From: a bacterium
Lineage (GTDB): Bacteria; JADJOY01
NCBI GenBank assembly: GCA_046331705.1
Contig: JAXLQJ010000002.1
Span: 58,370-78,369 of the forward strand
Reading direction: 5' to 3'
Length of the DNA stretch: 20,000 nt
Shown here one piece after another: positions 2-17,326 of this stretch (position 1 is its first letter; each line of letters begins with the position of its first letter). The translations under genes and the position numbers were made by a program. The notes beneath the pieces are model-generated. The model did no database searches and was not told where the DNA came from. It was given only the letters and a program-made list of their open reading frames with translations.

Positions 2-3000
2 ACGCGCCTCACCGACGGCATGACCGCCGACCGCCAGCCCGCGTGGTCGCCCGACGGCGACTCGATCGTCTACACGTCGCGCTGGAAGAACGAGAGCCTC
101 GAGAACTTGTGGATCCTCGATCCCACCAAGCCCGCGTGGCGCTGGCGGCTCACCTGGGCGGGCGGCCACGACGCCGTCTGGACGCCGGACGGCCAGTGGG
201 TGATCTACGCGGCCGCGCGCGGCTCGGATCCCGCGGATACCGATCTGTGGGCCATCCGGCCGAGCGACGGCGCCGAGCGGCAGCTCACCTCCGGCCCGGC
301 GCTGGACGCGAGCCCCGCGGTCTCGGCCGACGGCCTGCACGTGGTCTACGCCCGCTTCGCGACCGACACCAACGACGACGGCCGCATCGGCACCGACGAC
401 GACGCGTCGATCGCACGCCTCGACCTCGACACCAGCCGCCTCGCCGAGCTCACCGAGACCTCGCTGCCGACGCCGATCCCGCTCACTCCCGACGACTACT
501 TCGACGCGTTCCCGCGGGTCGTGGGCAGCCGCGTGGTGATGGCATCCGATCGGCTCGCGGTCCGCGGCCGCAATCTCGACGTCGTCGAGATACCGCTCGC
601 AGGGCTGGTGCGCGAGGAAGCGAGCGCCGCCGAGCAGCTCCGTCTCGCCCGCGCCCTCGATGCGCGGCCGGGCCTCGACCCACGCGTACGCATCCTCGGC
701 TACGCGAAGGTGCTGCGTCCCTTCGCCGCCGGGAGCGCCGCCAGCGCGGACGATCTCGACGAAGCGCGCGAGCGGATCGGCGAGCTCGAGCTCCTCGCCG
801 GCCAGCGCCGCGAGGCCGTGCGCGCGTTCGAGGCGCTGGTGGCGAGCGCCGCGCCGGGAGCGATCGCGCGAGCCCGCGCCGAGGTGGAGCTGGTGAAGAT
901 CCGCCGCGAGGACGCCGAGGACGATCTCTCGGCGCCCGCCCAGCGGCACGCGCTCGACGAACGCCTGGACGCGGGGCTCGCCACCCTGGCCGAGATCGAC
1001 CGGCGTTTCCCGGGCACCCTCGAGATCCAGGTGCGCGCGGCGATCGAGCGCGGCCGCCACCATCTCTCGCGCGGGATCCGCGGTGCCGCCCTCGACGACT
1101 TCCGCGCCGCCGAGGCCGCGGCGCAGACGTTTCCCGCCCTCGCCGCCGAAGCGGCGTTCGAGCGCGGGCGCGTCTACCAATCGGTCTCGGACACACAGGG
1201 CTTGGTCGGCTCGGACGTGAACCTGCTCACCCGCTATCGCGACGTGGCGCCCTGGGCGGAGCGCGCCGCCGACCGCGCCATCGCCGCGGTCCTCGGCGAC
1301 GCCACGGTGCTCGAGCCGGCGCAGCGTCTCGCCCGGCTCGTGGATCTCGCCGCCGAGCGCAAGGCGGTGCCGGTGCTGCCGGCGCGCGCGCTTCTCGAGG
1401 TCGGCAGGGCGCACGCGGAGGCCGGTCGCCCCGAGCGCGCCCAAGAGGTCTATCGCCGCGTTCCCGCCGAGTTCCCGGAGGATCGGGCGCAAGTGGCCGA
1501 GGCGCGCTTCCGGCTCGCCAGCCTCGCCTACGCTGCCGGGCGCTGGGACGAAGCCCTCGAGCAGTACCGCCTCATCCAACGCGACGTGCCGCAAGCCGAG
1601 CGCGCCTACGAGCTGGCGCGGGAGAGCTTCGTGCGCGCGGCGGTCGAGAAGGGCGAAGCGGAGATCAAGGGACGCGATCCCCAGAGCGCCATCGCCACCT
1701 TCGTCGGCCTGGTGAAGTACGACCCGAGCGTCGTGGAAGCGCACCGCGGGCTCGTCGACGCCTACGTCCGCGCCCGGCGCCTGAAGGAGATCCAGAGCCA
1801 CTACGAGGCGCAGCTCGAGCAGAACCCCAGCGACGCGGTGGCGGCGTACGCGCTCGGGCTCGTCTTCACCTACCCCGAAGCGCTCGATCTCGACGCCGCC
1901 GAGAAGTGGCTCAGGCGCTCCATCGTCCTCGATCCGCGCAACGCGTACGCGCACCAGACGCTCGGCTTCGTCCTCAAGGCCCGCGCCGACCGCGTCGAGG
2001 AGCCGAGCCTGGCGCGCGAGCTGATGGACGCCACCGTGGGCTCGGTGCTGGCCAAGACGGGCATCCGCTCGCAGGAGACCGAGCGCAAGGAAGACCTGCT
2101 CAACCAAGCGCTCGAGAAGTACCAGGCCGCGCAGGCGCTCTCGAACGAAGCGATGAGTCCCGGTCAGCGCGCCGATCTCGACCTCAACCTCGGCAACGTC
2201 TATCTCGAGCTCGGCAACGATCTGCGCGCGTACGAGTCGTACCGAGCGCGCGAGGCCTCGGGCCGGCCGTTCGCCGTCGAGGAACAGGAAGCGCTCTTCC
2301 ACACGAGCTTCTCGAAGGCGGCCCACCGCACGGGGCACCTCGACGAGGCCGAGCGCCACGCGCTCGCCGCGCTGGCGTTCTGGCGCCCGCGCAAGGACGA
2401 GGCGCGGATCTACGAGCTGGTCGACAGCCTCGGCCTCGTCTACCAGGAGCAAGGCCGGCGCACCGAGGCGGTGGAGGCCTATCGCGAGACGCTCGAGATC
2501 AGCCGGCGGCGCGGCGACGAGTCCAACGCCTTCCGGGCGCTCATGAACCTGGCCGTGAATCTCACGTTCCAGGCGGAAAACGGCGTGCGCGGCGCCGATT
2601 GGTCGCTGCTCGACGAGGCGCTCGCGCGTCACGAGGAGGCGCTCGCCAAGCTCGGCACGCGCGCCACGCGAAGCGAGAGCAGCACCGGGTTCGCCGTGAC
2701 CAACGTGAACGTGGCGCTGGCCGGCGAGTCGTCCTCCGCCGCCACCGGCTTCGACGAGGCGGGCTTCCGGCGCCTCTTCCTCACCTTCGTCGCCCGCATC
2801 CACCGCGATGCGGGCAACGTCGACGAGAGCGTCGCGGCGCTGACGGCCAAGCGTGCCCAGCTTCCCGCGCTCGAGCCACGCGACGCGGCCCGTAACCCGG
2901 GCACCGCCATCGACCACGCGATCCTGCTCGAGCAGATCGGCGCGCTTAGGCTGGCGCAAGGCAAGCCCGCCGAGGCGCTTGGCGCGCTGACCCGATCGCT

Positions 3001-6000
3001 CGAGCTCTGCGAGGCCCTGGGCGACGTCGGGTTGGCAGGCGCCGTCGCGGGTATCGAGCAGCTCGCGCGCCTGGCCGGCGAGGCCCCGGCGAGCGTCCTC
3101 GACGACACCCGCGCAGCAGCGCTCGTCGCGCACGCCGAGCGCGTGCGCGAGCTGGCGTCCAACGCCACCACGAATCCCGAGCGCCGCTGGCTCGTGGCGC
3201 GAGCGTGGAACGCCGAGGCGGAGATCGTGCGGGCCGGCATCGCGCGCGAGCCCGCGGCACCGGCGGCAGGCTCGCGAGCGACCGTGGCGGAGCGCGTGCG
3301 CAGCGGTCTCGCGGCCGCCGAGCGGGATGCCGCGGCGCTCGATCGCGCGCGCGCGGCCCTCGACCAGGCGCTCACGGTGCTCGGGGCGCCACGACCGGAC
3401 GACCCGCCGGCGATCGCGCGGGCGCGGGCCATCTCGGCGGTGAACCGGGCGCGGCTGGGGTTGCGGGTCGCCGCCGATGCCAGCGCGGCGCGCGCGGCCC
3501 TCGACGTCGCCTTGGGCGGGCTGCGCGACGGCGCCGACGACGACCTACGCTGGCGCGTGCTCGCGGAGCGCGGCGCGCTGCGCGAACGAGCGCGCGACGA
3601 CCAGGACGGCGCGACCGCCGATCTGGAAGCGGCGGCGGCGCTCGTGAAGGCGCTCGCCCCGGGAACGCTCGAGGTCGACGATGCCGGCGAGCTCGATGCG
3701 CTCTTCGACAGGCTCGCCAGCCGTGCCGTCGTCCAGGGACGGGTGTCGAAGGCGCTCACGCTGCTCGACACCGCGCCCGCGATCGCCCTCGCACACGTGG
3801 TCGGCGCGGGGCTCGCGCCCGAGCCGCCGCGACCGCCCGATGCCGCGCTCGCCGCCGCCGTGGGCTCGCCGCCGCAAGAGGAGAAATCGCGCGAGCGCGA
3901 GGTGCTCGCGAGCGTGCTCGCCCGCGAGCCTCTCGATCCCGGCGATCTGCAGGCGCGGCTCGGCGAGGGCGAGATCGTGCTGGCGCCGGTGACCGTGCCG
4001 CGCTCGGCGATCGTCCGGGTGTTCCGCCTCGACGCCGCGCGCCTCGACGCGGTGGAGGTGCCGCGCACCGGCGACGACGCCGCGCTCGCGAGCGCGGTGA
4101 TCGCCGCGGGGCTCGGTGGGCGCAGACCGACGGCGCTCTACCTCTCACCACGCGCCGAGCTGGTCCGCTTGCCGTGGGAGAGCGCGATCCCCGTGGGAGT
4201 ACCGTCGGCGCGGGTGCTGAGCCTCGCACACCTCGCCGCCTCGCTCGATGCGCGCAACGTGCTGCGCGAGGGCCGCTTGCGCATCGCCGCCGAGCGCACA
4301 CCCGGGCCCGTCGCACCCGAGGTGACCGAGATCGCGGGCGCGGATGCGGATCGCGAGCGCATCCTGCGCGAGCTCCCTGGGAAATCGATCGTCGAGATCG
4401 CGACGCCGCTCACCGGCGGCAGCGACCCGCTGGCGCTGCGCCCCGCGCTCCCGCTCGGTGCGGGCCGGCTGCAGCGCTTCACCCTCGACGATCTGGTGCG
4501 CGAGCCGGCGCGCCGCCGCGTGGCGCTCGCGCAGGCGATCGAGGCGTCGTCGCTCACCCGTGACGCCGCCGTGCAGGTCCTCGCTGCCGCCGGCTTCCCG
4601 TCGGTCGTGATCGCGCCGGAGGCCTCGACCCGCGAGCGCGTCGTGGCGGCGCTCGGCGAAGCCTCGGTGGGCGAGGCGGTGGCGAGCGCCCGCAAGAGCG
4701 CTCCCACGACTCCGCTCGAGCTCTACGGCGCGGTGGGATTCGACGCCGACCAGGCGCTGGCGTTCGCCGAGGAGCGCTACGGCGATCTCGTCGCCCAGGC
4801 GGCGCGCGCGTATCGAGAGGAGCGCTGGAAGGACGCGGCCGACGCGTTCGCCGACGCGCTCAGCCTGGAAGAGATCCTCGATCGCCCGGCCGACCGCGCG
4901 CAGATGCTCTACCGGCTCACCGACGCCTGCGCCCGCGCCGGCCAATGGCAGCGAGCCACGCGCTACCAGCAGCAATCCGTCGCCGACGCGCGCAAGCAAG
5001 GCGATCCGGCGGCGCTCGCCCAGGCGCTCTTCGACCTCGGCGTCTTCCGCTCGCGCGCCGAGGATTTCGACGGCGCGATCGCCGCCCTCGGCGAGACCGC
5101 AGCGCTATGGGCCAAGCTCGGACGCGTCGCGGACAAGAGCCAGGCGCTCGCGGTGCAAGGGATCGCCGAGGAGAGCGCCGGGCGTTACCAGCGCGCGCTC
5201 GAGACCTTCGGCACCGCGCTGGCGCTCGACGAGGTGAGCGGTGCCTCCGAGGGCCAAGGGCGCCAGATTCGCCGCATCGGCCGCATCCAGCTGGTGCGGC
5301 TCAATCGCTACGCGGACGCGGAAGCGAGCTTCCGCAAGGCGCAGGCGATCCTCGAGAGCGCAGGCGACGTCCCGGGCTGGATCGAATCGACCCTGGAGAT
5401 CGGCCTCGCGCGAGTGGCGATCGGCGATCTCGCCGGCGCCATCGCGCAATACGACGAAGGGCTCGAGGCGGCGCGGGACTCCGACGAGAAGGCGCTCGTC
5501 GCCAAGGCGCTCGCCTACCGCGCCGAAGCGCATTGGCTCTCCGCGAGCTACGGCGAGGCCTTCGCCGACATCCGCGCTGCGGAACAAGCGGCCGAGGCGG
5601 CCTCAGCGCCGCGCCAGGCGTTCCTGGCGACCAACCTGAACGCGTTGGTGCGATGGAGCCTGAACGACTTCGACGCGGCGCTGGACGAGGCCGAACGGGC
5701 GCTCGCGCTCGCCGAGAAGCTGGGCGAGAAGACGGACGTATCCGCCGTCCACAACAACCTCGGGATCATCCACCGCGACGCCGGCCGGCCTGCGGCGGCG
5801 CTCGAGGAGCTGGACCAAGCGCTCGCGGTGGATCGCGCCATCGGCTCGCGCTGGGGCGAGGGCTACGACCTGCGCAACATCGGCATGACGTACCTCGTCA
5901 TGGGTCGCCTGGACGCCGCGCTCGACTCCCTGACCCGCGCGGTCGACGTGAGCCGCTCGATCGGCGATCGGGTCAACGAGGCGAAGGCGCTCGTGAGCCT

Positions 6001-7606
6001 CGGCGACACCCAGCTCGCGCTCGCGCGGCCCGCAGACGCCGAGCGGACCTTCGTCGACACCGCGACGCTGGCGCACGAGCTGGGCGTGCGCGAGGTCGAG
6101 TGGCGCGCGCTCTGGGGCCGCGGCCGCGCGGAGCGCGAACAAGGCCGGTTCCCCGAGGCCCGCGCCAGCTTCGAGGCGGCGGTGGAGCTGGTGGAGAGCC
6201 TGCGCGCGGCCCTCAAGATCGAGGAGATGCGCAACGGCTTCATCACCAACAAGGTCGATCTCTACGAGGACCTGATCCGGCTCCTCCTCGACCGCGGCGA
6301 GGTGGCGCGCGCCTTCGACGTCGCGGAGCGGTCGCGGGCACGCGGCTTCATCGACCTGCTGGGCAACCAGAAGCTCGCGCCCGCGAAGGCGGCGAGCCGC
6401 GAGCTGCTCGCGAAGGTGCGCGCCCTCGACGTGCGCGTCGAGGAGGTGCGCAGCCAGCCGGCCGGCGCCGATCGCGACCGCGCGCTCGCCGCCGCCGAGA
6501 GCGAGCGCAAGGACCTGCTCACCCAGATCCAGCTCGAGGACCCGGCGCTCTCGAGCTTCGTGTCGGTGTCGCCGCTCGACGTCGCGGGCGTGAGAGCGCT
6601 GCTCGCGCCCGACGTGACGCTGCTCGCGTACTTCGTCGCGAAGAGCGAGGTGATCGTGTGGGTGGTGCGGAACGACTCCCTCGACGTGGCGCGCACGCCG
6701 CTCACGCGCGCCGAGCTCGAGAAGCGCGTGCTCGGCTTCCGCGACCGGATCCAGAAGGTGGAGCCGGTGGAAGCGGAGTCGCAAGCGCTCTACGACGCGC
6801 TGATCCGGCCCATCGCGGCGCGCATCCCCAAGGACGCCACCCTCGCGATCGTGCCCCACGGCATCCTTCACTACCTGTCGTTCGCCGCGTTGGCCGACGC
6901 CAAGGATCCGGCCGCCCCGTACCTGATCCAGCACCACCCGATCTTCATGAGCGCCAGCGCCAGCGTCCTCGCCTACACGGTCAAGCCCGACGCCGGTCGA
7001 CCGCGCGGGGCGCTCAAGGTGCTGGCCATCGGCAATCCCGATCTCGGGACACGCGATTTCGATCTGCCGTTCGCCGAGAAGGAAGTGAAGAGCCTCGCCT
7101 GGACGTATCCGCAGATCGACATCCTCACCGGCGCCAAGGCCACCAAGGAATGGCTGCTCGCGCACGTCGGCGAGTACGACGTCATCCACCTGGCCTCGCA
7201 CGGCGAGTTCGATCCGGTGAACCCGCTCGCCTCGGCGCTCAAGCTCGCGACCAGCTCGAGCGACGCCGCCGCCGGCGATCTCTTCGCCCGCGAGGTCTTC
7301 GGGCTAGATCTCAAGGCCACCATGGTCACGCTCTCCGCGTGCCAGACGGGTCTCGGCAAGGTCGAGGCCGGCGACGAGGTGATCGGCCTCAACCGCGCGT
7401 TCCTCTACGCCGGCACGCACAGCCTGCTGTCGAGCCTGTGGCGCGTCTCCGACGTCTCGACGGCGATCCTGGTCAAGCACTTCTACCGGAACTTCGTGCA
7501 CGAGCCGCGCGCCGAGTCGCTTCGCCAGGCGCAGCTCCACGTCATGAGCTACTACCCGCACCCGAGCTACTGGGCTGGCTTCGTGCTGAGCGGCGACTAC
7601 CGCTGA
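2..7606 (+). CDS. Giant PD40/TolB-propeller + TPR + CHAT-domain (caspase-like cysteine protease) protein, 5'-truncated by the window edge
   Basis: The frame is open from position 2 (TRLTDG precedes the ATG at 20, continuing a PD40-type repeat), so the true start is probably upstream. N-terminal repeats PAWSPDG, AVWTPDG and PAVSADG. Many TPR-like helices (e.g. AHQTLGFV, DLNLGNVYLELG, VHNNLGIIHRDAG, DLRNIGMTYLVMG). C-terminal CHAT motifs IVPHGILHYLSF, DVIHLASHG (His codon 7199), VTLSACQTG (Cys codon 7340), AFLYAGTHSLLSSLWRVSD and HPSYWAGFVLSG. Confidence 0.93.
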   Translation, partial: TRLTDGMTADRQPAWSPDGDSIVYTSRWKNESLENLWILDPTKPAWRWRLTWAGGHDAVWTPDGQWVIYAAARGSDPADTDLWAIRPSDGAERQLTSGPALDASPAVSADGLHVVYARFATDTNDDGRIGTDDDASIARLDLDTSRLAELTETSLPTPIPLTPDDYFDAFPRVVGSRVVMASDRLAVRGRNLDVVEIPLAGLVREEASAAEQLRLARALDARPGLDPRVRILGYAKVLRPFAAGSAASADDLDEARERIGELELLAGQRREAVRAFEALVASAAPGAIARARAEVELVKIRREDAEDDLSAPAQRHALDERLDAGLATLAEIDRRFPGTLEIQVRAAIERGRHHLSRGIRGAALDDFRAAEAAAQTFPALAAEAAFERGRVYQSVSDTQGLVGSDVNLLTRYRDVAPWAERAADRAIAAVLGDATVLEPAQRLARLVDLAAERKAVPVLPARALLEVGRAHAEAGRPERAQEVYRRVPAEFPEDRAQVAEARFRLASLAYAAGRWDEALEQYRLIQRDVPQAERAYELARESFVRAAVEKGEAEIKGRDPQSAIATFVGLVKYDPSVVEAHRGLVDAYVRARRLKEIQSHYEAQLEQNPSDAVAAYALGLVFTYPEALDLDAAEKWLRRSIVLDPRNAYAHQTLGFVLKARADRVEEPSLARELMDATVGSVLAKTGIRSQETERKEDLLNQALEKYQAAQALSNEAMSPGQRADLDLNLGNVYLELGNDLRAYESYRAREASGRPFAVEEQEALFHTSFSKAAHRTGHLDEAERHALAALAFWRPRKDEARIYELVDSLGLVYQEQGRRTEAVEAYRETLEISRRRGDESNAFRALMNLAVNLTFQAENGVRGADWSLLDEALARHEEALAKLGTRATRSESSTGFAVTNVNVALAGESSSAATGFDEAGFRRLFLTFVARIHRDAGNVDESVAALTAKRAQLPALEPRDAARNPGTAIDHAILLEQIGALRLAQGKPAEALGALTRSLELCEALGDVGLAGAVAGIEQLARLAGEAPASVLDDTRAAALVAHAERVRELASNATTNPERRWLVARAWNAEAEIVRAGIAREPAAPAAGSRATVAERVRSGLAAAERDAAALDRARAALDQALTVLGAPRPDDPPAIARARAISAVNRARLGLRVAADASAARAALDVALGGLRDGADDDLRWRVLAERGALRERARDDQDGATADLEAAAALVKALAPGTLEVDDAGELDALFDRLASRAVVQGRVSKALTLLDTAPAIALAHVVGAGLAPEPPRPPDAALAAAVGSPPQEEKSREREVLASVLAREPLDPGDLQARLGEGEIVLAPVTVPRSAIVRVFRLDAARLDAVEVPRTGDDAALASAVIAAGLGGRRPTALYLSPRAELVRLPWESAIPVGVPSARVLSLAHLAASLDARNVLREGRLRIAAERTPGPVAPEVTEIAGADADRERILRELPGKSIVEIATPLTGGSDPLALRPALPLGAGRLQRFTLDDLVREPARRRVALAQAIEASSLTRDAAVQVLAAAGFPSVVIAPEASTRERVVAALGEASVGEAVASARKSAPTTPLELYGAVGFDADQALAFAEERYGDLVAQAARAYREERWKDAADAFADALSLEEILDRPADRAQMLYRLTDACARAGQWQRATRYQQQSVADARKQGDPAALAQALFDLGVFRSRAEDFDGAIAALGETAALWAKLGRVADKSQALAVQGIAEESAGRYQRALETFGTALALDEVSGASEGQGRQIRRIGRIQLVRLNRYADAEASFRKAQAILESAGDVPGWIESTLEIGLARVAIGDLAGAIAQYDEGLEAARDSDEKALVAKALAYRAEAHWLSASYGEAFADIRAAEQAAEAASAPRQAFLATNLNALVRWSLNDFDAALDEAERALALAEKLGEKTDVSAVHNNLGIIHRDAGRPAAALEELDQALAVDRAIGSRWGEGYDLRNIGMTYLVMGRLDAALDSLTRAVDVSRSIGDRVNEAKALVSLGDTQLALARPADAERTFVDTATLAHELGVREVEWRALWGRGRAEREQGRFPEARASFEAAVELVESLRAALKIEEMRNGFITNKVDLYEDLIRLLLDRGEVARAFDVAERSRARGFIDLLGNQKLAPAKAASRELLAKVRALDVRVEEVRSQPAGADRDRALAAAESERKDLLTQIQLEDPALSSFVSVSPLDVAGVRALLAPDVTLLAYFVAKSEVIVWVVRNDSLDVARTPLTRAELEKRVLGFRDRIQKVEPVEAESQALYDALIRPIAARIPKDATLAIVPHGILHYLSFAALADAKDPAAPYLIQHHPIFMSASASVLAYTVKPDAGRPRGALKVLAIGNPDLGTRDFDLPFAEKEVKSLAWTYPQIDILTGAKATKEWLLAHVGEYDVIHLASHGEFDPVNPLASALKLATSSSDAAAGDLFAREVFGLDLKATMVTLSACQTGLGKVEAGDEVIGLNRAFLYAGTHSLLSSLWRVSDVSTAILVKHFYRNFVHEPRAESLRQAQLHVMSYYPHPSYWAGFVLSGDYR
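365..403 (+). other. DxNxDG (EF-hand-like) calcium-binding loop inserted in the propeller region
   Basis: The translation DTNDDGRIGTDDD matches the Dx[DN]xDG Ca-binding loop pattern. Confidence 0.55.
3536..4740 (+). other. Internal degenerate (pseudo-)CHAT module of the giant protein
   Basis: Colinear similarity to 6086-7606. EPLDPGDLQARLGEGEIVL vs SPLDVAGVRALLAPDVTLL; LYLSPRAELVRLPW vs LAIVPHGILHYLSF; EIAGADADRERIL vs DILTGAKATKEWLL; SIVEIATPL vs DVIHLASHG; LAAAGFPSVV vs FLYAGTHSLL; LELYG vs FVLSG. Confidence 0.7.
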
Positions 7607-7676: not shown

Positions 7677-9062
7677 TCAGGGCAGCGCCGCGAACGCGTG
7701 GCTGCGACGGTCGGGCCGCCCGAACTCGAGGAAGTAGCGCAGCCCCGCGAGGAACGGCACGCCGAACGTGGCGCGCTCCTTCCACATCCGCACCACGCTC
7801 CCGAGCACCGCGAACGGCGCCACCGGCAGCCGCGCCAAGCGCCGCGCCAGCGGCGCGCTCCACGGGAACGCCGTGGCCAGCCCGAAGAGGTGGTAGAGGT
7901 TCCTCACCTCGCGCTCGGTGTGAGCGGCGCCGTCGCCCGCGGCGACCACGGCGCGCTCCCCGAACGGCGTGCCGGGCAACGCCACGGAGAGCGTGACACG
8001 CGCGAAATCCGCGCGCAGCCGGTGATTGAAGCGAATCGTCGTCCACACGTCCTCGGGACCCTCGCCCGGCGAGCCGACCAGGTTGAAGGTCACCAGCGCG
8101 ATGCCGGCGGCGCGGATCCGCGCCGCCGCCTCGATCACCTGCTGGTCGCTGGCGCGCCGATTCAGCACGGCCCGGCGGCGCTGCTCGTCACCGGATTCGA
8201 TGCCGATGCCGAGGGCGCGACAGCCGGCCCGCGCCAGCGCGCGGATCGTCCGCTCGGAGGCGAGCTCGGGGGCGAGATGGCAGGAGAACGGCACGCGCGC
8301 GGCGCTCGGAAAGCGATCCGCCAGCTCCTCGACCCATTCGGCGCGCGCGCCGAACACGTCGTCGCCGAAGTGCACGTGGCCGAGCGGCGCGCGGGCGGCC
8401 ACGTCGCGCAACTCCTCGATCACGCGCGCCACGCTCTTCACGCGCACCCACTCGCGCGGCTCGTGGTACACGCGCCTGAGCGCGGGTTGATAGCAATACG
8501 CACACGAGAACGGGCAGCCGCGCCCCGCCAGGAAGCGCTTCCACGGAAACGCGCGCATGCCCGGATAGCGCGCCCAGTAGAGGTCACGATCGGGAAGCGG
8601 CAGCGCGTCGAGGTCCATGCGCAGCGGACGCGGGCGGTTGCGGACCGCGCGGCCTTCGACCCGACTCGCGCTCCCGGGCAAGTCCCGGAACCCGTCGCCA
8701 CGCTCGAGGCGCTCGGCCAGCTCGGCAAGCGTGTCCTCGGCATCGCCCACCACGGCGACGTCCGCGTGGGAGTCGAGCGACTGCTCCGGCAAGAAGGTCG
8801 GATAGCTGCCCACGAGCGCGACCGGCACGTCGAGCACCGCGCGGGCGCGAAACGCCGTGCGCTGCGCCCATTCCCGCGCCAAGAGCGAAGCCTGCACCAC
8901 CGCGAGATCGGGCCGGAGGTCGCGCGCCAGCGTCCACAGAGCGGGCTCCTGCGACTCGATGAGCAGCGCGGTACGGTGCCCGCGCGCGCGCAACGCCGCC
9001 GAGGTCTCGGCGAGCACCGGCGACTCGTCGAACGCGCTACGAGCGACGAAGAGCACCTGCAC
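7677..9062 (-). CDS. B12-binding domain / radical SAM protein (class B methyltransferase-like, BchE/HpnP/HpnJ-type architecture)
   Basis: N-terminal Rossmann-type B12-binding domain (SAALRARGH...RPDLAVV...VALVGSYPTFLPE...DVAVVGDAEDT). Linker DLDALPLPDRDL. GRGCPFSCAYC CxxxCxxC motif at 8493-8516, followed by HFGDDVF, GIGIESG and FNLVGSPGE. GTG start. Confidence 0.9.
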   Translation of the reverse strand: MQVLFVARSAFDESPVLAETSAALRARGHRTALLIESQEPALWTLARDLRPDLAVVQASLLAREWAQRTAFRARAVLDVPVALVGSYPTFLPEQSLDSHADVAVVGDAEDTLAELAERLERGDGFRDLPGSASRVEGRAVRNRPRPLRMDLDALPLPDRDLYWARYPGMRAFPWKRFLAGRGCPFSCAYCYQPALRRVYHEPREWVRVKSVARVIEELRDVAARAPLGHVHFGDDVFGARAEWVEELADRFPSAARVPFSCHLAPELASERTIRALARAGCRALGIGIESGDEQRRRAVLNRRASDQQVIEAAARIRAAGIALVTFNLVGSPGEGPEDVWTTIRFNHRLRADFARVTLSVALPGTPFGERAVVAAGDGAAHTEREVRNLYHLFGLATAFPWSAPLARRLARLPVAPFAVLGSVVRMWKERATFGVPFLAGLRYFLEFGRPDRRSHAFAALP

Positions 9063-9083: not shown

Positions 9084-9527
9084 TCAGAGGCTCACGCTCA
9101 GCGCCACGACGGCCACCGTCGCGAGCGCCGAGACCTTGCCCATGCGATCGAGCTGGCGCTCGCAGGCGCGGCGCGCCTCGAGCTCGCTGCCGCCGCTCGC
9201 CGTGGCGTAGGCGGCGATGGTGCGGGTGGCCCGCAGCTCGAGCACCGCCGCCAGCGCGAGCCACGCGACGCACACGAGCTTGAGCCCCATCACCCAGCCG
9301 TGGGGCTGATGCTGAAGGTGGCTCAGCGCCGCGCCGCTCACGACCGCGACCACCATGCCGGGTGCCTCGAGAAGACGGGTGGGCTCGAAGGCGGCCAGCC
9401 GCAGCGCGCCGGCACGGTCCGGATCCACGCTCTTTCGCGCCTGCGCGAGCAAGACCGCCTGCCCCAGGGCACCGCCGATGGCGGCGAACACGGCGAGCAG
9501 ATGGACGACCAACGCGACCTCGATCAT
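9084..9527 (-). CDS. Small integral membrane protein (about 4 TM, DUF2269/CopD-like pattern)
   Basis: Start reassigned to the ATG at 9527 (GGGGGA upstream), giving 147 aa: MIEVALVVHLLAVFAAIGG...PGMVVAVVSGAAL...GWVMGLKLVCV. The H...GG, G...G and W...KL motifs are typical of such 4-TM families. The longer ORF-track extension to 9842 overlaps tetR. Confidence 0.7.
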   Translation of the reverse strand: MIEVALVVHLLAVFAAIGGALGQAVLLAQARKSVDPDRAGALRLAAFEPTRLLEAPGMVVAVVSGAALSHLQHQPHGWVMGLKLVCVAWLALAAVLELRATRTIAAYATASGGSELEARRACERQLDRMGKVSALATVAVVALSVSL

Positions 9528-9628
9528 GGATCCCCCGCACGCCGCGACCGCTGCCGCGGTCTCCGCCGCGGGCGAAGCTCGAGCACGAGCGTTCGACGGC
9601 CGATCGTCCGCCGCGCGCCGCGGCGATT

Positions 9629-9655
9629 CCGTGCCGCAAGTCACTTGCGGCGCGG
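9629..9655. other. Inverted repeat centred on the tetR stop codon
   Basis: CCGTGCCGCAAGT-C-ACTTGCGGCGCGG: a 9-bp perfect core, 12 of 13 positions complementary, with the stop codon (TCA 9641-9643) at the centre. Confidence 0.5.
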
Positions 9656-10336
9656 CGCCACCGTGAAGGCCTCCAGCAAGGCGCTCACTCCGCGGGTCGT
9701 GTAGCGCACGGCCTCCTCGCGGGTGAGCGCGCGGCGGCACCATTGCTCGAGGACCGCGCGTCCCGCGGCGACCAGCATGCGCGCCACCGTCGCGACCTCG
9801 AGCGGGGTCGCGCCCGTCGCGGCGCCGATCGCGGTGAGCCACGGCGACACCAGGCGATCGAGCAGCCTGCGCCCCTGCAGCGCGAGCTCGGGATCGGGAG
9901 CGTGCCCCCCGAGCAGCTCCCAGGGGCCCGCGCCGTTGGCCTCGATGGCATCGCAGACCGCCTCGACGAAGACACGCGTCGCGTCCTCGAGGGTCGCCGC
10001 GGAAGTCGCGGCCACGCCCACGGCGAAGCGTGCCTCGACGTCGCGCACGAAATCCTCGAGCACCGCCACGAGCAGCGCGCGGCGCGATGCGAAGAGCCTG
10101 TAGACCAGCTGCCGCGTGACGCCGGCGCGGACCGCCAGCTCGGCGAACTGGACCGCGTCCACGCCACGTCGCGTGATCAGCTCGGCGGCGAGCCGCACGA
10201 GCTGCGCGCGCCGCTCCTCGGGGGCGAGGCGCCGGCGCGCCGGCGCGGAGCGCGCCGCGGCCGCGGCCGAAGCCGAGGCGGCCGAGCGGCGGGGACGCGC
10301 GCGCGAATGTGATCGAGATCGCAGAGGTGGAGCCAT
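9641..10336 (-). CDS. TetR/AcrR family transcriptional regulator
   Basis: HTH signature RRLAPEERRAQLVRLAAELITRRGVDAVQFAELAVRAGVTRQLVYRLFASRRALL. Transcribed divergently from the oxidoreductase pair. Confidence 0.93.
   Translation of the reverse strand: MAPPLRSRSHSRARPRRSAASASAAAAARSAPARRRLAPEERRAQLVRLAAELITRRGVDAVQFAELAVRAGVTRQLVYRLFASRRALLVAVLEDFVRDVEARFAVGVAATSAATLEDATRVFVEAVCDAIEANGAGPWELLGGHAPDPELALQGRRLLDRLVSPWLTAIGAATGATPLEVATVARMLVAAGRAVLEQWCRRALTREEAVRYTTRGVSALLEAFTVAPRRK
10308..10323. promoter_or_regulatory. CRP/FNR-family-like binding site
   Basis: TGTGATCGAGATCGCA matches the CRP consensus core TGTGATCTAGATCACA at 14 of 16 positions and is preceded by AA. It lies in the first codons of tetR. 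Confidence 0.5.
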
Positions 10337-10401: not shown

Positions 10402-12144
10402 ATGCGGGACTTCGACGTGGTCGTGATCGGCGGTGGCATCAACGGCTTGACGGTGGCCGCGTACCTCGCCCGCGCGGGCCAGAAGGTCGCGGTCTTCGAG
10501 GCGCGCGGCCAGTGCGGAGCGCACTGCGACACCGTCGAGCTGGGCATTCCCGGCTTCCTGCACAACACCCACGCCGCGTGGCTGGTCCCCGCGCTGAGCC
10601 CCGCCATGGGCGACCTCGAGCTCGCGCGCCACGGCCTCGAGCTGCTCGGCACGGACGTGCTCTTCGCCAAGACCTTCGGCGACGGCACCAACGTGGTGCA
10701 AGCGCTCGACCCGGCGCTCACGGAGGCGAGCATCTCGCGCGCCTCGCCCCGCGATGGCGCGGTGCAACGCGCCATCGCCGCGTTCATGACGGACCAGGCG
10801 GGCGAGGTGCTCGAGCTGAATCAGGAGCTTCTCTACTCGCTGCCGAGCGCGGCCACCCTCGACCGGCTCGCTGCGTTCGACGACGCGTTGCTCGGTCGTC
10901 TCGCGGTGCCGCTCTCGGGCGAGGACGCGCTGCGCATGAACGGCTTCGAGGTCCTCGAGGTGCTCTTCGAATCGGACTCGGTGCGAACGCTGCCCGCGGC
11001 GCTCGGGGAGTTCACGGGCCAGTGGCCACTCCATCGCCGAGTCGGATCGTTGGTGCTGAGCCTCGCCGGGCTCTCGCCGATGCCGGTGCACACGGCGCGG
11101 GGCGGATCACACGCCCTCACCCACGCGCTGGTGCGCAGCCTGATCGCCCACGGCGGCGAGATCTTCACCACCTGCCCGGTCGAGCGAATCGTGGTGCGCG
11201 ACGGACGGGCGTGCGGCATCCGGCTGTCGGCGGACGCGCTGCTTCCCAACGAGACGATCGGGGCTCGGGTGGTCGTCTCCAACCTCACGCTGGTGCCGAC
11301 CTTCCTCTGGCTGCTCGGCGAGGACGTCATCGGGAGCGAGCGGGCGCGGCTCGTGAAGGGATTCGATTACGACGATCCGCAGCTCCTCGGCGTCCACTTC
11401 GCGCTTTCGGGGGACCCCGAATTCGCCTCCGCCCACCACGATCCCGCGATCCAGCGCTCGTGGGTCGGCTACCTCGGCGGCGAGACGCTCGACGAGATGC
11501 GCTCCGGGCTGACGCGCTTGCTCTCCGGCGTGATCCCCGACGACGTCATGGGCGGCTGGTTCATCCCCACCCGCGCCGATCCCTCCCAAGCTCCGCCCGG
11601 CTGCCACACGCTCTTCGCGTGGATGAGCGTGCCTCCCTGCCCGCGCCGCTGGCGCGGCCAGCGGCTCGCGGGCTGGGACGCGTGGCGCGCGCTCGCCGAG
11701 CCGCTCGCCGACGCGCTCACCGAGCGGCTCGAGGCCCTGGCACCCGGTTTCCGCCGCTCGATCCTGGAGCGGCACGTGAACACGCCGCTCGACCAGCAGA
11801 ACGCCAATCCCTCGGCGATCCGCGGCAACATGATCGGCGGCAGCGCCGTCCCCGAGCAGTACGGGCGGAATCGACCGTTGCCGGGAATCGTCGCGGGCGG
11901 CGCATCGCGCAGCTTCCTGCCCGGCCTCTACCTCTCGAACTCGATCCATCCCTACGGCGCGACCCACCTCGCCACGGGCTGCATCGCCGCCGGCGAGGTC
12001 GCCGAGGATCTGGGCTGCCGCGATCGGGATTGGTGGTGCAACCCGCCGTTCCTGTGGTTCCTCCAGAATGTCGGCGACATCCCGCTCAACCGTGGCGTGG
12101 CGAAGCGATGGCACCCGGGATCGGGCACGGAGGTGAGCCGATGA
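10402..12144 (+). CDS. Phytoene desaturase family (COG1233) FAD-dependent oxidoreductase, paralog A1
   Basis: DVVVIGGGINGLTVAAYLARAGQKVAVFEAR dinucleotide-binding motif; PGFLHNTHA; GGSHALTHALV; DPSQAPPGCHT; LAPGFRRSILERHVNTPLD. GAGGAG RBS upstream. Confidence 0.92.
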   Translation: MRDFDVVVIGGGINGLTVAAYLARAGQKVAVFEARGQCGAHCDTVELGIPGFLHNTHAAWLVPALSPAMGDLELARHGLELLGTDVLFAKTFGDGTNVVQALDPALTEASISRASPRDGAVQRAIAAFMTDQAGEVLELNQELLYSLPSAATLDRLAAFDDALLGRLAVPLSGEDALRMNGFEVLEVLFESDSVRTLPAALGEFTGQWPLHRRVGSLVLSLAGLSPMPVHTARGGSHALTHALVRSLIAHGGEIFTTCPVERIVVRDGRACGIRLSADALLPNETIGARVVVSNLTLVPTFLWLLGEDVIGSERARLVKGFDYDDPQLLGVHFALSGDPEFASAHHDPAIQRSWVGYLGGETLDEMRSGLTRLLSGVIPDDVMGGWFIPTRADPSQAPPGCHTLFAWMSVPPCPRRWRGQRLAGWDAWRALAEPLADALTERLEALAPGFRRSILERHVNTPLDQQNANPSAIRGNMIGGSAVPEQYGRNRPLPGIVAGGASRSFLPGLYLSNSIHPYGATHLATGCIAAGEVAEDLGCRDRDWWCNPPFLWFLQNVGDIPLNRGVAKRWHPGSGTEVSR

Positions 12145-13718
12145 ACGCTTCCCCGTCGTACGACGCGATCGTGCTGGGTGGTGGACCCAACGGCTTGATG
12201 TGCGCCGCGTACCTCGCCCGCGCCGGCCACCGCGTGGCACTCCTCGAGCGGCGTCACGAGACCGGTGGCGGGCTCAACACCGAGGAGTACTTCGGCTTCC
12301 GCTTCAACTTGCACGCCGTCTACCACCTGATGGGCGAGCGCATGCCCGCGCACGGCGATCTCGGGCTCGCGGCGCTCGGCGTGCGCTACCTCTACCCGCC
12401 GGCAGTCGCGTCGTTCGCGCTCCGCGACGGCAAGGCGCTCGTCTTCACCCGCGATCCACGCGAGACCGCGCGGGCCATCGAGGCGCTCTGCGCCGCCGAC
12501 GCGTCCCGCTACCTGCGCATGTGGGACGAGTTCCAGCCGATGCTCGACGAGTACCTGGTGCCGATGACCTACGAGCTGCCGCGGCCGGGCCTCGACCAGG
12601 TCGTGGCGCTGGGGCGAACCCCCGTCGGACAGCGGCTCGCCGAGCTCTCGGAGCTCACGTTCATCCAGGTGCTCGACCACTTCGGCTTCGCCGATCCGCG
12701 GGTGCGCATGGCGCTGCTCGCGTTCCCGGCGATGTGGGGGCTCGCCCTCGACGAGCCGCTCGGGTTCCTCTTCCCCCTCTACCTCTGCCGCATGCTCGCG
12801 GCGGGGCTCGTGAAGGGTGGTTCGCATCGGCTCTCGTCGGCGATCTACCGCTCGTTCGTGAGCGCGGGCGGGACGGTGCTCGACGCGTGCGAGGCGACGC
12901 GCATCGTGGTCGAAGGTGGCACCGTCGCCGCCGTCGACTCCGCCGATGGCCGTCGGCTCGCGACGCGGACCGTCGTGTCCACGCTCGATCCGACGCAGAC
13001 CTTCGCGGAGCTGTTGCGCGGCGTCGCGCTGCCCGAGGATCTGCGGTCCTCGGTGGATGGCTGGCAATGGGAGGAGCGCTCGCTCTTCGGGCTGCACCTC
13101 GGCGTGCGCGGCGAGGTGCGCTTCCACTGCGCCGCCGCGGACCCACGGGTGGCGGAGTCGATGATCGTGTTCCTGGGGATCGACACCGACGACGAGCTGA
13201 TCGCGCACCTGCGCCACGTCGACGCCGGCCATCCCGACGGCTGCGAGTGGATGCACGTGACCGTTCCGAGTCGCTTCGACGCGACGATGGCGCCGCCCGG
13301 GCACGCGGTGCTGCGCGGCGAGTCGGTGGTCGCCTACGATCCGGCGTGGCCGGAACGCGCGCACGCGTTCGGCGACTCGGCGCTGGCGCTGCTCGCGCGT
13401 CACGCCGAGCTGGGCGAGATCGTGCTCAGGCGCCACCACACTCCCGTCGACATCGAGCGCAAGCTCACGACCATGAAGCGCGGCTCGATCAAGCACGGTG
13501 CCCTGAAACCGCTTCAGATGGGCTACTACCGTCCCAACGATCTGTGCTCGCGCAGCGCCACACCCGTCCCGGGGCTCTTCCTGGGCGGCGCCTCGATGTA
13601 CCCGGGAGGCATGATCCTGGGCGGCCCCGGCTATCTCGCCGCCCAGGTCGTCGGCGAGCACCTCGCGAACGCGAGCGGCGGCGCCCGGTCCGGATCGACG
13701 GCACCGGCCGATCCGTAG
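12141..13718 (+). CDS. Phytoene desaturase family (COG1233) FAD-dependent oxidoreductase, paralog A2
   Basis: True start is the ATG at 12141 (ATGA overlap with the upstream stop, GGAGGT RBS), giving 525 aa. YDAIVLGGGPNGLMCAAYLARAGHRVALLERRHETGGG; KGGSHRLSSAI; FDATMAPPGH; TPVPGLFLGGASMYPGGMILGGPGYLAA. Confidence 0.92.
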   Translation: MNASPSYDAIVLGGGPNGLMCAAYLARAGHRVALLERRHETGGGLNTEEYFGFRFNLHAVYHLMGERMPAHGDLGLAALGVRYLYPPAVASFALRDGKALVFTRDPRETARAIEALCAADASRYLRMWDEFQPMLDEYLVPMTYELPRPGLDQVVALGRTPVGQRLAELSELTFIQVLDHFGFADPRVRMALLAFPAMWGLALDEPLGFLFPLYLCRMLAAGLVKGGSHRLSSAIYRSFVSAGGTVLDACEATRIVVEGGTVAAVDSADGRRLATRTVVSTLDPTQTFAELLRGVALPEDLRSSVDGWQWEERSLFGLHLGVRGEVRFHCAAADPRVAESMIVFLGIDTDDELIAHLRHVDAGHPDGCEWMHVTVPSRFDATMAPPGHAVLRGESVVAYDPAWPERAHAFGDSALALLARHAELGEIVLRRHHTPVDIERKLTTMKRGSIKHGALKPLQMGYYRPNDLCSRSATPVPGLFLGGASMYPGGMILGGPGYLAAQVVGEHLANASGGARSGSTAPADP

Positions 13719-13769: not shown

Positions 13770-15518
13770 TCAGGGCTTGGTGGGTGCCAAGGCCCGCGAG
13801 GTTCCAGCAGGCGCGGGATCGGCGGGGTCGGCAAGCGCCACCGCCCGCTCGCTCGGCTCGCGCGATGCGTCGGGCGCGACGCCCGCGGCGTCGGTCGCCG
13901 GCGTGGGTCCGGCCGGCGGGATGGGCGGCTGGCGCAGCCACTCGCCGAGCCGCGAGAGCTCGGGCATGCCGAGCAGCCGCGCCAGGACCAGGTAACACGC
14001 CATGCCGAGCGCCCCCAACACGGACGTCTCGATCAGGTGGGCGACGCTGAGCGAGGTGAGATCGAAGCCGGCGAGGGAGCCGTGCGCGGCGAGCCAGCGG
14101 GCGACCCATCGCTCGCACGGAACGATCGCCAGTGCCATGAGCGCGGCGGCGAACGCGGGTCGCACGCTCGCACGCGCCAGCGCCACCATGCCCAGTCGCC
14201 CCAGCCGCCGCCGCAGGACGAGCAGCAAGAGCGGCAGCGACACCCACGCGTTGATGCTGAACGCGAGCGCGATCCCGCCCACGTCCCACCAGCGCGCCAG
14301 CGCGTAGCCCACGGCGGTCATCGGCGCGAGCAGCGTCACCACCATGAACGCGACGCGACGTGCCTCGCCGAGCGACATCGCCAGATAGGTGGGCACCTGA
14401 TTCAGCACGATCGCCGCGATCCACGGCGCGAAGCCGAGCACCACCTGCGAGGTCAGCCGGGCGCTCTCGGCGGTGAATCGCCCGCGCAGGAAGAGCGCGC
14501 CCACCATCGGCTCGCGCAGCACGATCACCAGCGCCGTGATCGGCATCAGCACCACGCTCGCGATCCGCACGAAGGTGACCACCAGCTCGCGCAAGCGGGC
14601 GGTGTCGCCGGCGGCGGCGAGCGCGGCCATGCGCGGATAGAGCGGCGACACCAGCGAGCCCTGCACCAGCGTGGGCAGCACGATCAGCACCGACGTGCCG
14701 TACCGGAACGCCGCGACTCGTCCCGGCCCCAGGCGCGAGGCGAGCAACGAGGCCACGACGAAGCCCGCCACCACCGCCAGCGAGAAGATCGCCGTCGGCG
14801 TCACCTGCCGCAGCACCTCGCGCAACGCCTCGGATCGCCACTCGATCCGCAGTCGCAGGTGACGGTGGTAGGGCGCGAGCAGCGGCAGCACCATCAACGC
14901 CTGTGCCGCGTATCCGCTGACCAGACCCCACGCGGCGCCATCGACTCCCAGCGTCGGCGCGAGCACCACCACCCCCACGATCAAGCCGGCGCTGGGGAGC
15001 AGCGTCGCCAGCGCCGCGGTGGTGAAGCGCTGGTAGGAGTAGAGCAACGCCTCGGCGAGCGCGAACGCCGGGAAGAGCACCATCACCGGCGTCACGATGC
15101 GCGTGATCCGCACGAAACGTCCGACGGCGTGCGCATCGAGCCCCGGCAACCAGCGCGCGCCGAGCGGCGCGGCGAGCGCGTAACCGGCGGCGAGCAGCAG
15201 GAGCGATCCGAGCGCCAGGTTCGCGAAGCTGGTCGCCAGACGCCACGCGCTCGCCTGTCCCTCGCCGCTGCGGGTCGCGACGAATTTCGGGACCAGCGAG
15301 AGGTGCAGCACCGAGCGCGCGTGAAAGCCGAGCATCACGGGAAGCAGCTGGCCGAGGAACAGCACGTCGGTGTCGACGCCGGCCCCGAAATGCGCGGCGA
15401 CCACCGCCAGCGACACGAAGCGCAACGCCAGCGAAACGACCCCGATGACGGCGAGGGCCACCGACGCCGTGCGCATCCGCTGGGCGCGGCCGAGGGGTGC
15501 GAGGTCGTCGGAGCTCAT
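13770..15518 (-). CDS. MurJ/MviN-family (MOP superfamily) lipid flippase-like membrane protein, divergent paralog
   Basis: Start assigned to the ATG at 15518 (AGGA upstream), giving 582 aa with about 14 hydrophobic segments. MviN-like motifs AAHFGAGVDTD, LVPKF, LAAPLGARWLPG, QRFTTAAL, LYPRMA, REPMVGALFLRGRFTAE and GGIALAFSI. Pro/Ala-rich C-terminal tail. Confidence 0.85.
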   Translation of the reverse strand: MSSDDLAPLGRAQRMRTASVALAVIGVVSLALRFVSLAVVAAHFGAGVDTDVLFLGQLLPVMLGFHARSVLHLSLVPKFVATRSGEGQASAWRLATSFANLALGSLLLLAAGYALAAPLGARWLPGLDAHAVGRFVRITRIVTPVMVLFPAFALAEALLYSYQRFTTAALATLLPSAGLIVGVVVLAPTLGVDGAAWGLVSGYAAQALMVLPLLAPYHRHLRLRIEWRSEALREVLRQVTPTAIFSLAVVAGFVVASLLASRLGPGRVAAFRYGTSVLIVLPTLVQGSLVSPLYPRMAALAAAGDTARLRELVVTFVRIASVVLMPITALVIVLREPMVGALFLRGRFTAESARLTSQVVLGFAPWIAAIVLNQVPTYLAMSLGEARRVAFMVVTLLAPMTAVGYALARWWDVGGIALAFSINAWVSLPLLLLVLRRRLGRLGMVALARASVRPAFAAALMALAIVPCERWVARWLAAHGSLAGFDLTSLSVAHLIETSVLGALGMACYLVLARLLGMPELSRLGEWLRQPPIPPAGPTPATDAAGVAPDASREPSERAVALADPADPAPAGTSRALAPTKP

Positions 15519-15826
15519 CGGAATCCTGGCGATCGACTCGGACGGACGCCCCGGCCGAATCGTTCCGGAGCGGCGCACGCGAGCGCGCAGTCGCCGGTCG
15601 CGAGCGATGCAAGTACCAGCATGGCTCCGCCGCCACGCACCGCACCAGATCGGCGCGGCTTTGTCGCGAAAAGATGACGAACCAGGCCCGCGAAGGCACG
15701 AAACAGCCCCGAATTCGTGATGTCCGTCACGCTTCCGGCACTCGTCGGCGTGTACGTTCGGCGCCACTCGACGCGGCTCCACACCCCTGCCGAGCCGAGC
15801 GACGCCGACGCGAGCAGGAGAGCGCC

Positions 15827-17326
15827 ATGGCGAACGACGAAGCGGACGTGGTGGTCATCGGTGGCGGCCCCGGCGGCCTGAGCTGCGCGGCTGCGCTCGC
15901 GCATCGCGGCGTACGCACGTTGCTCCTCGAGAAGAACTCGCGCATCGGCGGCAAACCGGTCACCGTGTCCCGCAACGGCTACCGCTACGAGCTCGGTCCC
16001 AAGCTCCAGGTACCGATGCGTGGACCCGCGTTCGCGACGCTCTTCGAGGAGCTCGGGATCACGGCGCGCCTGCGCCCGATCCCGCTCACGGCGGCGACGC
16101 TCTCGTATCGGCCGCGGGAAGAGGCGGCGTACCGCACCCTCGTCGCTCCCCAGACCGGCGACGACCCGACTCCGCTCTTCGACCTCTGGGGCCTCGACGA
16201 ACGCGAGCGGCTCGAGGCCTTCTCGATGCTCACGCAGCTCGTGATGCTGGAGGGGCCCGAGCTGGAAGCGCTCGACGACGTCAGCATGCACGACTACCTG
16301 CAGGCGCAGCTGCGCGTGCCGTGGCGCCTCTACAGCTACATGGCGATGCACGCGAACGCGTCGTTGGCGGAGCCCATCGACCGCGTCGCCGCCTCCGAGC
16401 AGGTGCGCATCCTGAAGGACATCGCGTTGCGCGGCGCGGGCGGCTATTACCGGGGCGGCTTCGGGCGCGTCCTCGGCGACCTCGCGGCGGCGTTTCGCGG
16501 CATGGGGGGTGAGATCCGCAACGCGCACCGGGTGGAGCGCATCCGCGTCGAGCACGGGCGCGTGACCGGCGTCGAGACCCAGCACGGCACCATCCGGGCG
16601 CGCGCGGTGGTGAGCAGCGCGGGCATCCAGCCGACCGTCCTCGAGCTGGTGGGCCCCGCGCATTTCGAGACCGGCTACGTGAAGCGCATCCGCGCCCTCG
16701 AGCCGGGATGGGGGTGGGCCAGCGTCCGCTATTTCCTCGACGCACCGGTCTTCCAGACGGGCATGGCGATGCTCTACTCGGACGAGAGCTGGTGGGACCT
16801 GGAACGCGCGCGCCGCGTGAGCGCGGGACACGATCCCGACGAGGTCATCGTGTTCCTCACGGTGCCCGCGGTGTTCGACCCGACGATGGCGCCACCGGGC
16901 CGTCAATGCGTGATCAGCGGCACCATCTGCTCGCCGGACCCGAAGGCCGCGGAGATCGAGCGACTCCATCGCCGCGTCGACGCCATGATGGAGCGGGTCT
17001 ACCCGGACGCGTGGCGCGCCGTCGTCGACCGCGAAGCCGACGGCCCCGCCGAGATCTCCGCCGCCACGCGGCACGCCGTGCTCCCGGGGCAAGGCGGCGA
17101 GTGCGTGGGATTGGGGCAGGTCGTCGGGCAATGCGGGCGACACAAGCCGAAGAACGCGACGCCGCTGCCCGGGCTCTATCTCGCCGGAACCGACGCCGGC
17201 GCGGCGGGCATGGGGACCCATCAAGCCGCGACGTCGGGGATGGTCGCCGCCGCGGCCGTGCTCGCGTACCTGCGCGCCGATTCCCAGCAATTCACGCGCG
17301 GGGCGTTGCTGCCCTACGCCTCGTGA
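15827..17326 (+). CDS. Phytoene desaturase family (COG1233/CrtI/RetSat-like) FAD-dependent oxidoreductase, paralog B1
   Basis: ATG at 15827 with AGGAG RBS, giving 499 aa. DVVVIGGGPGGLSCAAALAHRGVRTLLLEKNSRIGGK; GYRYELGP; YYRGGFG; FDPTMAPPGRQ; TPLPGLYLAGTDAG. Confidence 0.92.
   Translation: MANDEADVVVIGGGPGGLSCAAALAHRGVRTLLLEKNSRIGGKPVTVSRNGYRYELGPKLQVPMRGPAFATLFEELGITARLRPIPLTAATLSYRPREEAAYRTLVAPQTGDDPTPLFDLWGLDERERLEAFSMLTQLVMLEGPELEALDDVSMHDYLQAQLRVPWRLYSYMAMHANASLAEPIDRVAASEQVRILKDIALRGAGGYYRGGFGRVLGDLAAAFRGMGGEIRNAHRVERIRVEHGRVTGVETQHGTIRARAVVSSAGIQPTVLELVGPAHFETGYVKRIRALEPGWGWASVRYFLDAPVFQTGMAMLYSDESWWDLERARRVSAGHDPDEVIVFLTVPAVFDPTMAPPGRQCVISGTICSPDPKAAEIERLHRRVDAMMERVYPDAWRAVVDREADGPAEISAATRHAVLPGQGGECVGLGQVVGQCGRHKPKNATPLPGLYLAGTDAGAAGMGTHQAATSGMVAAAAVLAYLRADSQQFTRGALLPYAS

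Follow-up and report, generated by a model that had tools for sequence, protein, structure and literature searches.

Does the giant CHAT protease encoded at this locus carry a second, catalytically dead CHAT module in its middle, and if so, why has it been kept? The gene lies at the start of the window, by which we mean the whole 20,000-nucleotide stretch of DNA that was analysed. An earlier note had aligned the middle of the reading frame by eye with its C-terminal end, and had read the pair as the product of an internal duplication. The full-length protein has 2698 amino acids (P0001), with the domain order beta-propeller, TPR array, dead module, TPR array and intact module. Residue numbers in the window are the full-length numbers minus 164. 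The features of the gene are as follows.

2..7606, + strand: open reading frame of the giant propeller-TPR-dead CHAT-TPR-CHAT protein (2534 of 2698 aa in the window; 5' end outside)
2..604, + strand: C-terminal part of the TolB-like PD40 beta-propeller (boundary approximate; Pfam PD40 E 2e-11)
605..3535, + strand: first TPR array (Pfam TPR families; boundaries approximate)
3536..4741, + strand: whole dead CHAT module, aa 1179-1580, with helical entry, pseudo-caspase subdomain and dead caspase-like subdomain
3539..3814, + strand: helical entry of the dead module, counterpart of the helices from 6086 (four helices in the model; 1 of 1000 shuffles reaches the pairwise score)
3932..4249, + strand: pseudo-caspase (CHAT1/PPD-type) subdomain of the dead module, including the linker helix (hhalign P 97.0%, E 9.5e-11 to its counterpart in the C-terminal module; strands and helices in the model)
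4268..4732, + strand: dead caspase-like (CHAT2/APD-type) subdomain (hhalign P 98.3%, E 1.2e-14)
4406..4408, + strand: Pro1469, at the catalytic His position (family alignment; Pro in 37/59 relatives, His in 0/59)
4538..4540, + strand: Ile1513, at the catalytic Cys position (family alignment and hhalign; Cys in 0/59)
4727..4768, + strand: conserved stretch joining the last strand of the dead module to the second TPR array (weighted conservation Gly1576 0.96, Gly1579 0.88, Ala1589 0.93)
4757..6085, + strand: second TPR array, about 440 aa (Pfam TPR_12 and others)
6086..7606, + strand: intact CHAT module with His2400 (nt 7199) and Cys2447 (nt 7340) (Pfam CHAT E 1.7e-65; dyad in 58/59 relatives)

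Pfam marks PD40 propeller repeats, TPRs and a single C-terminal CHAT domain on the giant protein. It has no match in the middle segment at E ≤ 1, so the suspicion that profile annotation could miss the module was correct. The propeller matches TIGR02800 with E 5e-24, far under the equivalog cut-off.

Searches with the dead module alone, including one of 1.84 billion representatives, found a single relative, P0002. The family was therefore gathered through the N-terminal half, which gave 62 proteins among 8000 candidates. Of these 59 are longer than 2400 aa, and the counts given here are without P0036, P0052 and P0062, each of which is under 2400 aa. A word-based search of limited reach found no shorter or split forms. 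P0036 (1750 aa) was considered as a stand-alone N-terminal half and rejected; it breaks off within the dead module, its last residues form a tail unmatched in any relative, and it is probably the result of a frameshift.

All 12 motifs on which the alignment by eye was based are present in frame 2 of the open reading frame at the places given. Compared pairwise, the two segments match weakly (BLASTP E 0.13), and neither pairwise BLAST nor self-BLAST of the protein reveals the repeat. The pairwise alignment of the whole segment was not outscored by any of 1000 shuffles (z 4.3), and most of this signal comes from the helical part (1/1000). The alpha/beta part was not significant (177/1000), and the core gave 41/1000. 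Profile-profile comparison of the middle and C-terminal modules with hhalign gave P = 99.87% and E = 8.9e-32 over 394 columns, with 0.16% for a reversed control and at most 0.08% in ten of ten column-shuffled controls. The significant profile match to the C-terminal CHAT on which the earlier note had staked its proposal was therefore found. In our judgment it is this family-level (profile) evidence that makes a match that is weak between the two sequences decisive.

Other searches gave the following results. A profile of the 59 C-terminal modules matches the middle region over most of its length in seven of the 59 proteins (E 1e-28 to 4e-74), the best alignments running from the entry helix to the last strand, and gives a weak 11 bits against the middle of the window protein. 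With a profile built without P0001 and P0002, from an alignment that had been made with the query present, a two-sequence search returned E 2e-32 for the middle segment of the window and 3e-32 for the C-terminal module. Pfam PF12770 misses the dead copy of the window, but passes its cut-off on both orthologous segments that were scanned (L018 E 9e-30, L014 E 1e-6). Among the families listed by a language-model search of the ESM Atlas all are CHAT, with 0.96 for the whole segment and 0.94 for the alpha/beta part (4094-4750); the two results count as one source.

The AlphaFold2 model of the dead module, made with a 42-row alignment, has pLDDT 90.7 and pTM 0.90 and is of low confidence only in the linker. 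It rests on that self-made alignment; single-sequence folding without it gave pLDDT 44. Foldseek found 37 matches to the model at E ≤ 0.001, and among the matches listed were the Craspase TPR-CHAT, DdvA, separase and chains of the ciliary central apparatus. An independent structure aligner placed the TPR-CHAT chain 7y83 (Z 19.5, rmsd 5.1, 347 residues aligned) and DdvA (Z 19.3, 4.9, 315) at the top, with Csx29 (Z 18.6, 4.3, 356), yeast separase (Z 18.4, 4.1, 346) and the separase protease domain 5fc2 (Z 17.1, 3.3, 255) close by. Gingipains gave Z 12.7 and 11.4, and the first unrelated TPR protein 10.7. The predicted dead module thus has the pseudo-caspase plus caspase alpha/beta architecture, with Z 19.5-17.1 to TPR-CHAT and separase chains over 255-356 residues. 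The structural check that had been suggested accordingly returned a predicted CHAT/separase fold, with the alpha/beta core of the caspase-hemoglobinase type. Judged by the profiles and the predicted model together, 3536-4741 is a second, complete CHAT module found throughout the family, and the hidden module is real.

The ciliary central-pair chains 7n6g_1N, 7sqc_R0 and 9ijj match the model roughly as closely as separase (Z 17.3, 15.9), and may represent a eukaryotic case in which the TPR-CHAT fold is used as a scaffold.

The module has lost its catalytic residues throughout the family. In the middle copy the His column contains Pro in 37 and Arg in 10 of 59 proteins and His in none, and the Cys column never contains Cys. 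Within two columns of the dyad sites His occurs in 4/59 and Cys in 0/59. In the C-terminal module His and Cys are both present in 58/59. Loss of the dyad from the middle copy is therefore common to all 59 relatives in the homolog alignment. The 19 genome-derived full-length segments (L009 being left out of the 20 full-length loci) also have no dyad; one of these is unaligned at the columns and one is close to a protein already counted. The Pro at the His position (4406) was read correctly from the sequence, but the Cys position corresponds to Ile1513 (nt 4538) and not to Ala1512 (nt 4535), one codon away. Cys occurs in the reading frame only at aa 1003, 1643 and 2447, so that 3536-4741 is free of Cys as had been claimed. 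Its two His residues (aa 1265 and 1410) are both away from the dyad columns.

The phmmer alignment places the C-terminal His2400 and Cys2447 on H615 and C658 of Csx29, which are its catalytic dyad (PMC10028731), and the C-terminal unit is probably the active protease. In one member, P0054 (2620 aa), His and Cys are missing from the C-terminal module too; both modules look dead, and the architecture is kept.

From the alignments, the loss in the dead copy extends past the dyad, and the motifs and loops around the active site are eroded. An LPFAxxE-type motif is found in 1/59 dead against 47/59 intact copies, and an S/T-L-W-x-V motif in 0/59 against 49/59. The loop ahead of the His strand has a median length of 36 aa in dead copies and 53 aa in intact ones, and that past the Cys strand 22 aa and 30 aa, which puts the dead-copy loops flanking the dyad strands a median 17 and 8 residues below those of the intact copies.

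How did the second module arise? In a FastTree phylogeny (90 rows, 498 columns) the 21 dead copies fall on one side of a split with support of 0.725, beside long branches. The sub-groups among them parallel the sub-groups of the intact copies, in keeping with a single old event and subsequent vertical descent. The best pairwise match is a C-terminal module of the family for 14 of the 21 dead copies. The median profile score was 113 (n = 21) compared with 64 for other CHATs (n = 48), and the second-best score belongs to a non-family protein. Between the two TPR arrays the in-register match is the best (E 3e-19), with shifted offsets only slightly worse (E 3e-17). A Binatia genome (L020:4371-12761) has three CHAT genes in a row, namely a guanylate-cyclase-like/CHAT/DUF4384 gene followed by two TPR-CHAT genes. 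The modules of these two are among the closest to the dead copies, and as tandem single-module genes they score about as well against them as the C-terminal modules of the family do. We favour internal duplication over fusion of two related TPR-CHAT genes, but these sequence comparisons do not separate the two or prove either. The pairing of a dead with an intact module in one chain, as first noticed, stands firm; the further suggestions of a substrate platform or decoy, a cFLIP analogy and an internal duplication are less supported.

Where does the protein act? A hydrophobic stretch is present at the N-terminus in 54/59 proteins including that of the window (by a crude hydrophobicity rule applied with no control), a similarly crude rule finds a lipobox-like Cys in 12, and 56/59 have no internal membrane-like segment. 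By these features the family is probably exported. A genome scan gave at least 79 loci, with at least 20 full-length genes in Thermodesulfobacteriota, Myxococcota, Nitrospirota, Nitrospinota, Magnetococcia and unassigned bacteria. Among the matches listed, a DUF1318 lipoprotein gene is upstream in 17/20 full-length loci, an AsmA/DUF748-like gene is upstream in 16/20, and an SH3 and M48 peptidase pair is nearby in 11/20; none of 57 other CHAT loci has any of these neighbours. The neighbour profiles were built from those very loci, several of the contigs stop short, and most AsmA-type Pfam scores fall below the cut-off. The usual order in the relatives is AsmA-like protein, DUF1318 lipoprotein, giant gene, SH3 protein and M48 peptidase, found at loci L001-L006, L008-L012, L015-L019 and L029 (for example L009:5516-20199). 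At L029 the SH3 and M48 genes are upstream, and in Geobacter sp. OR-1 (L006:5617-9226) the AsmA-like gene is broken up into two ORFs. In two Myxococcota loci (L021:7366-9951 and L024:2439-5027) a methyl-accepting chemotaxis gene directly precedes the giant gene, replacing the AsmA/DUF1318 pair.

The window locus has no downstream SH3 and M48 genes, and its upstream side lies outside the window. Downstream on the other strand are genes for a radical SAM enzyme, DUF2269 and TetR, followed by others.

7677-9062, - strand: B12-binding radical SAM gene
9084-9620, - strand: DUF2269 gene
9641-10336, - strand: TetR gene
10402-13718, + strand, 15821-17326, + strand, and 18433-19911, - strand: four FAD-dependent oxidoreductase genes close together
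13770-15563, - strand: MurJ-like flippase gene
17733-18419, - strand: methyltransferase gene

We saw no sign that the oxidoreductase, flippase, methyltransferase, TetR, DUF2269 or radical SAM genes of the window belong to the protease system. Substrates of CHAT proteases are often encoded nearby (PMC9729208). PADLOC (2023 library) gave a generic TPR model and a weak BovA match (E 5e-4) for the whole protein, and left the dead module and three neighbours unmatched.

The upstream genes of the relatives recall ydbH-ynbE-ydbL of E. coli, where an AsmA-like gene is likewise followed by a small lipoprotein gene; the resemblance is one of gene order. These three genes form an operon for an envelope lipid bridge (PMC11126948; bioRxiv 10.64898/2026.03.16.712125), and YdbL is a substrate of DegP in vitro according to the same preprint, in whose text 'CHAT' occurs 0 times. 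YdbL is the only match of the DUF1318 lipoprotein among PDB sequences, and a weak one (E 1.5). The probable export and the envelope operon had both escaped the earlier note, as had the pseudo-caspase/caspase pair that is standard within a single module; the dead/intact pair itself had been seen.

Why, then, has the dead module been retained? It is the fastest-changing part of the protein, with mean identity of 21-25% compared with 35% for the TPRs and 53% for the active core. In four Desulfuromonadia genes dN/dS is 0.18 and 0.14 for the dead subdomains, 0.06-0.08 for the TPR arrays and 0.02 for the active core. The pairs do not include L006 and L010, although both were aligned; the actPPD row was discarded for a faulty end marker, and dS is near saturation. 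The least saturated pair gives 0.21-0.23 for the dead subdomains against 0.03 for the active core. These values of about 0.14-0.2, with dS near-saturated, indicate that the dead module is under purifying selection. Conservation in it is highest at Gly1531, Gly1576, Gly1579 and Ala1589, which belong to the fold core and the TPR junction, and in some members (P0061, L029) the module is much shortened. Such a pattern of conservation would suit a folded spacer or a relay more than it would a binding cleft.

On balance, and with modest confidence, we think that the dead module is kept as a structural scaffold or relay in an exported, envelope-associated two-unit TPR-CHAT sensor-protease. Two TPR-CHAT units would stand behind a TolB-like propeller, with the C-terminal unit performing proteolysis. 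The middle unit would have lost its His-Cys dyad early in the history of the family and been kept as a folded structural element. The dead module would close the first TPR array and feed straight into the second, and would therefore determine how the propeller/TPR input end and the protease end are placed relative to each other. It might also relay a conformational change, like the coupling of TPR to CHAT in Csx29, where such allostery has been described (PMC10028731, PMC9729208). We infer both this role and a link to outer-membrane upkeep. The fast change and the shortening in some members count against a scaffold, and are also compatible with slow decay.

A more specific proposal, tentative and rather unlikely in our estimation, is that the whole forms an envelope protease system. 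Alongside the two-unit TPR-CHAT protein the system would encode an AsmA-like lipid bridge, a YdbL-like lipoprotein, an SH3 protein and an M48 peptidase. The dead module would serve as an allosteric gate, sensing the state of the bridge or outer membrane and licensing the protease to cut one of these partners.

Next comes a regulator resembling cFLIP, in which the dead caspase-like subdomain would bind its intact counterpart, either within one chain or between the chains of a dimer, and turn it off or on. Inactive caspase homologues are known as regulators, cFLIP being one. The dead copy is always found alongside an intact one (58/59), with no stand-alone form in the word-based search of low reach, and, as DdvA shows, it is possible for CHAT sites to face a partner chain (PMC11506125). 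Yet no surface-type motif is conserved family-wide, the two modules are separated by about 440 aa of TPR, and the faster rate seems unlike that of an interface with a highly conserved partner. We judge such a regulator unlikely, and the analogy with cFLIP/caspase-8 drawn earlier is less supported because the conserved parts of the dead copy are glycines of the core and the passage into the following TPR array.

The module might alternatively serve as a substrate trap or exosite, its dead cleft or a new surface binding a substrate or partner and presenting it to the active site. Some sub-clades conserve motifs of their own within the dead module, an example being the S-x-T-H...R-K-P-F-R stretch of the consensus, and fast change could mirror diversity of partners. 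The cleft itself speaks against this role, since the loops and motifs around it are shortened or lost and the His position is mostly Pro. A decoy or platform acting through the old cleft, as once suggested, has lost ground because of this erosion, and we place the trap after the cFLIP-like regulator as improbable.

Lower again, and doubtful, is the reading of the module as a decaying relic that persists only as an in-frame link between two needed halves and must not misfold. It has the lowest identity within the protein, dN in the dead core is about eight times that of the active core (0.24 vs 0.03), and a few members are strongly shortened. Against decay, none of the 59 proteins lacks the module, which also occurs in Thermodesulfobacteriota, Myxococcota, Nitrospirota, Nitrospinota and Magnetococcia genomes; it is alignable end to end in 7/59, has dN/dS far under 1 and keeps near-invariant junction glycines. 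Gain of a different catalytic activity is very improbable; nothing speaks for it directly beyond Ser1407 and His1410 in a partly conserved linker motif, and no polar column exceeds 0.72 conservation family-wide, while the core is free of Cys in many members.

The favoured scaffold or relay would reside in a new domain layout for the separase/Craspase class, with four caspase-related subdomains predicted per chain and one able to cut. We found no account of a paired dead/intact layout in the literature within reach, which takes in little of the subscription journals. Pfam already marks a second CHAT in some family members, and undercounts dead CHAT modules. Within the family the dead copies range by degrees from those easily recognised to those almost erased, a natural series in which to study how pseudoproteases emerge. 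The envelope operon brings with it both candidate substrates and hosts that are in culture (Geobacter sp. OR-1, Geomonas oryzae S43), so that a role of bacterial CHAT proteases outside immunity can be tested directly. If the gate proposal were true, a caspase-fold protease would serve outer-membrane upkeep, not immunity or cell death.

How does the protein compare with known systems? cFLIP is a separate protein of the caspase branch, and the cyanobacterial pseudo-orthocaspases are likewise separate proteins, of the orthocaspase branch, whereas here a CHAT-type module is fused to its intact twin. What they share with it is a caspase fold without the His-Cys dyad (PMC6426788, PMC7889975). The Csp system of Clostridioides difficile has the subtilisin fold, functions in spore germination and shows no relation in sequence or fold. 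Its CspB and CspA are produced as a single fusion. The likeness is that of a bacterial protease regulated by related pseudoproteases (PMC7200643, PMC4619724).

Closer relatives are found among the TPR-CHAT proteins. Separase has a helical solenoid with pseudo-protease and protease subdomains, as here, but is eukaryotic, has one protease unit and is controlled by securin (PMC11506125). DdvA, a periplasmic anti-sigma factor of Myxococcus xanthus and the second-best fold match, is an extracytoplasmic TPR-CHAT protein; unlike the present dead and intact pair it has one CHAT with an intact dyad, together with a transmembrane helix and an anti-sigma domain (PMC11506125). The N-terminal anti-sigma domain and transmembrane helix of DdvA are absent from the giant protein, whose N-terminus is a short hydrophobic leader followed by the propeller.

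Csx29, the TPR-CHAT found in type III-E Craspase, similarly has a TPR array followed by a pseudo-caspase (CHAT1) and an active caspase (CHAT2) subdomain, in a separase-like arrangement (PMC10028731). A pseudoprotease beside a protease is therefore normal in the class; every CHAT protease has one pseudo-caspase subdomain, and so what is new here is the whole duplicated dead module. The giant protein scores 39.3 bits against the Csx29 family model NF041237 (NCBIfam), for a cut-off of 300. Csx29 has a single module and the partner Cas7-11, whereas the protein described here has two modules, one of them dead, together with a propeller, a probable export signal and envelope genes as neighbours.
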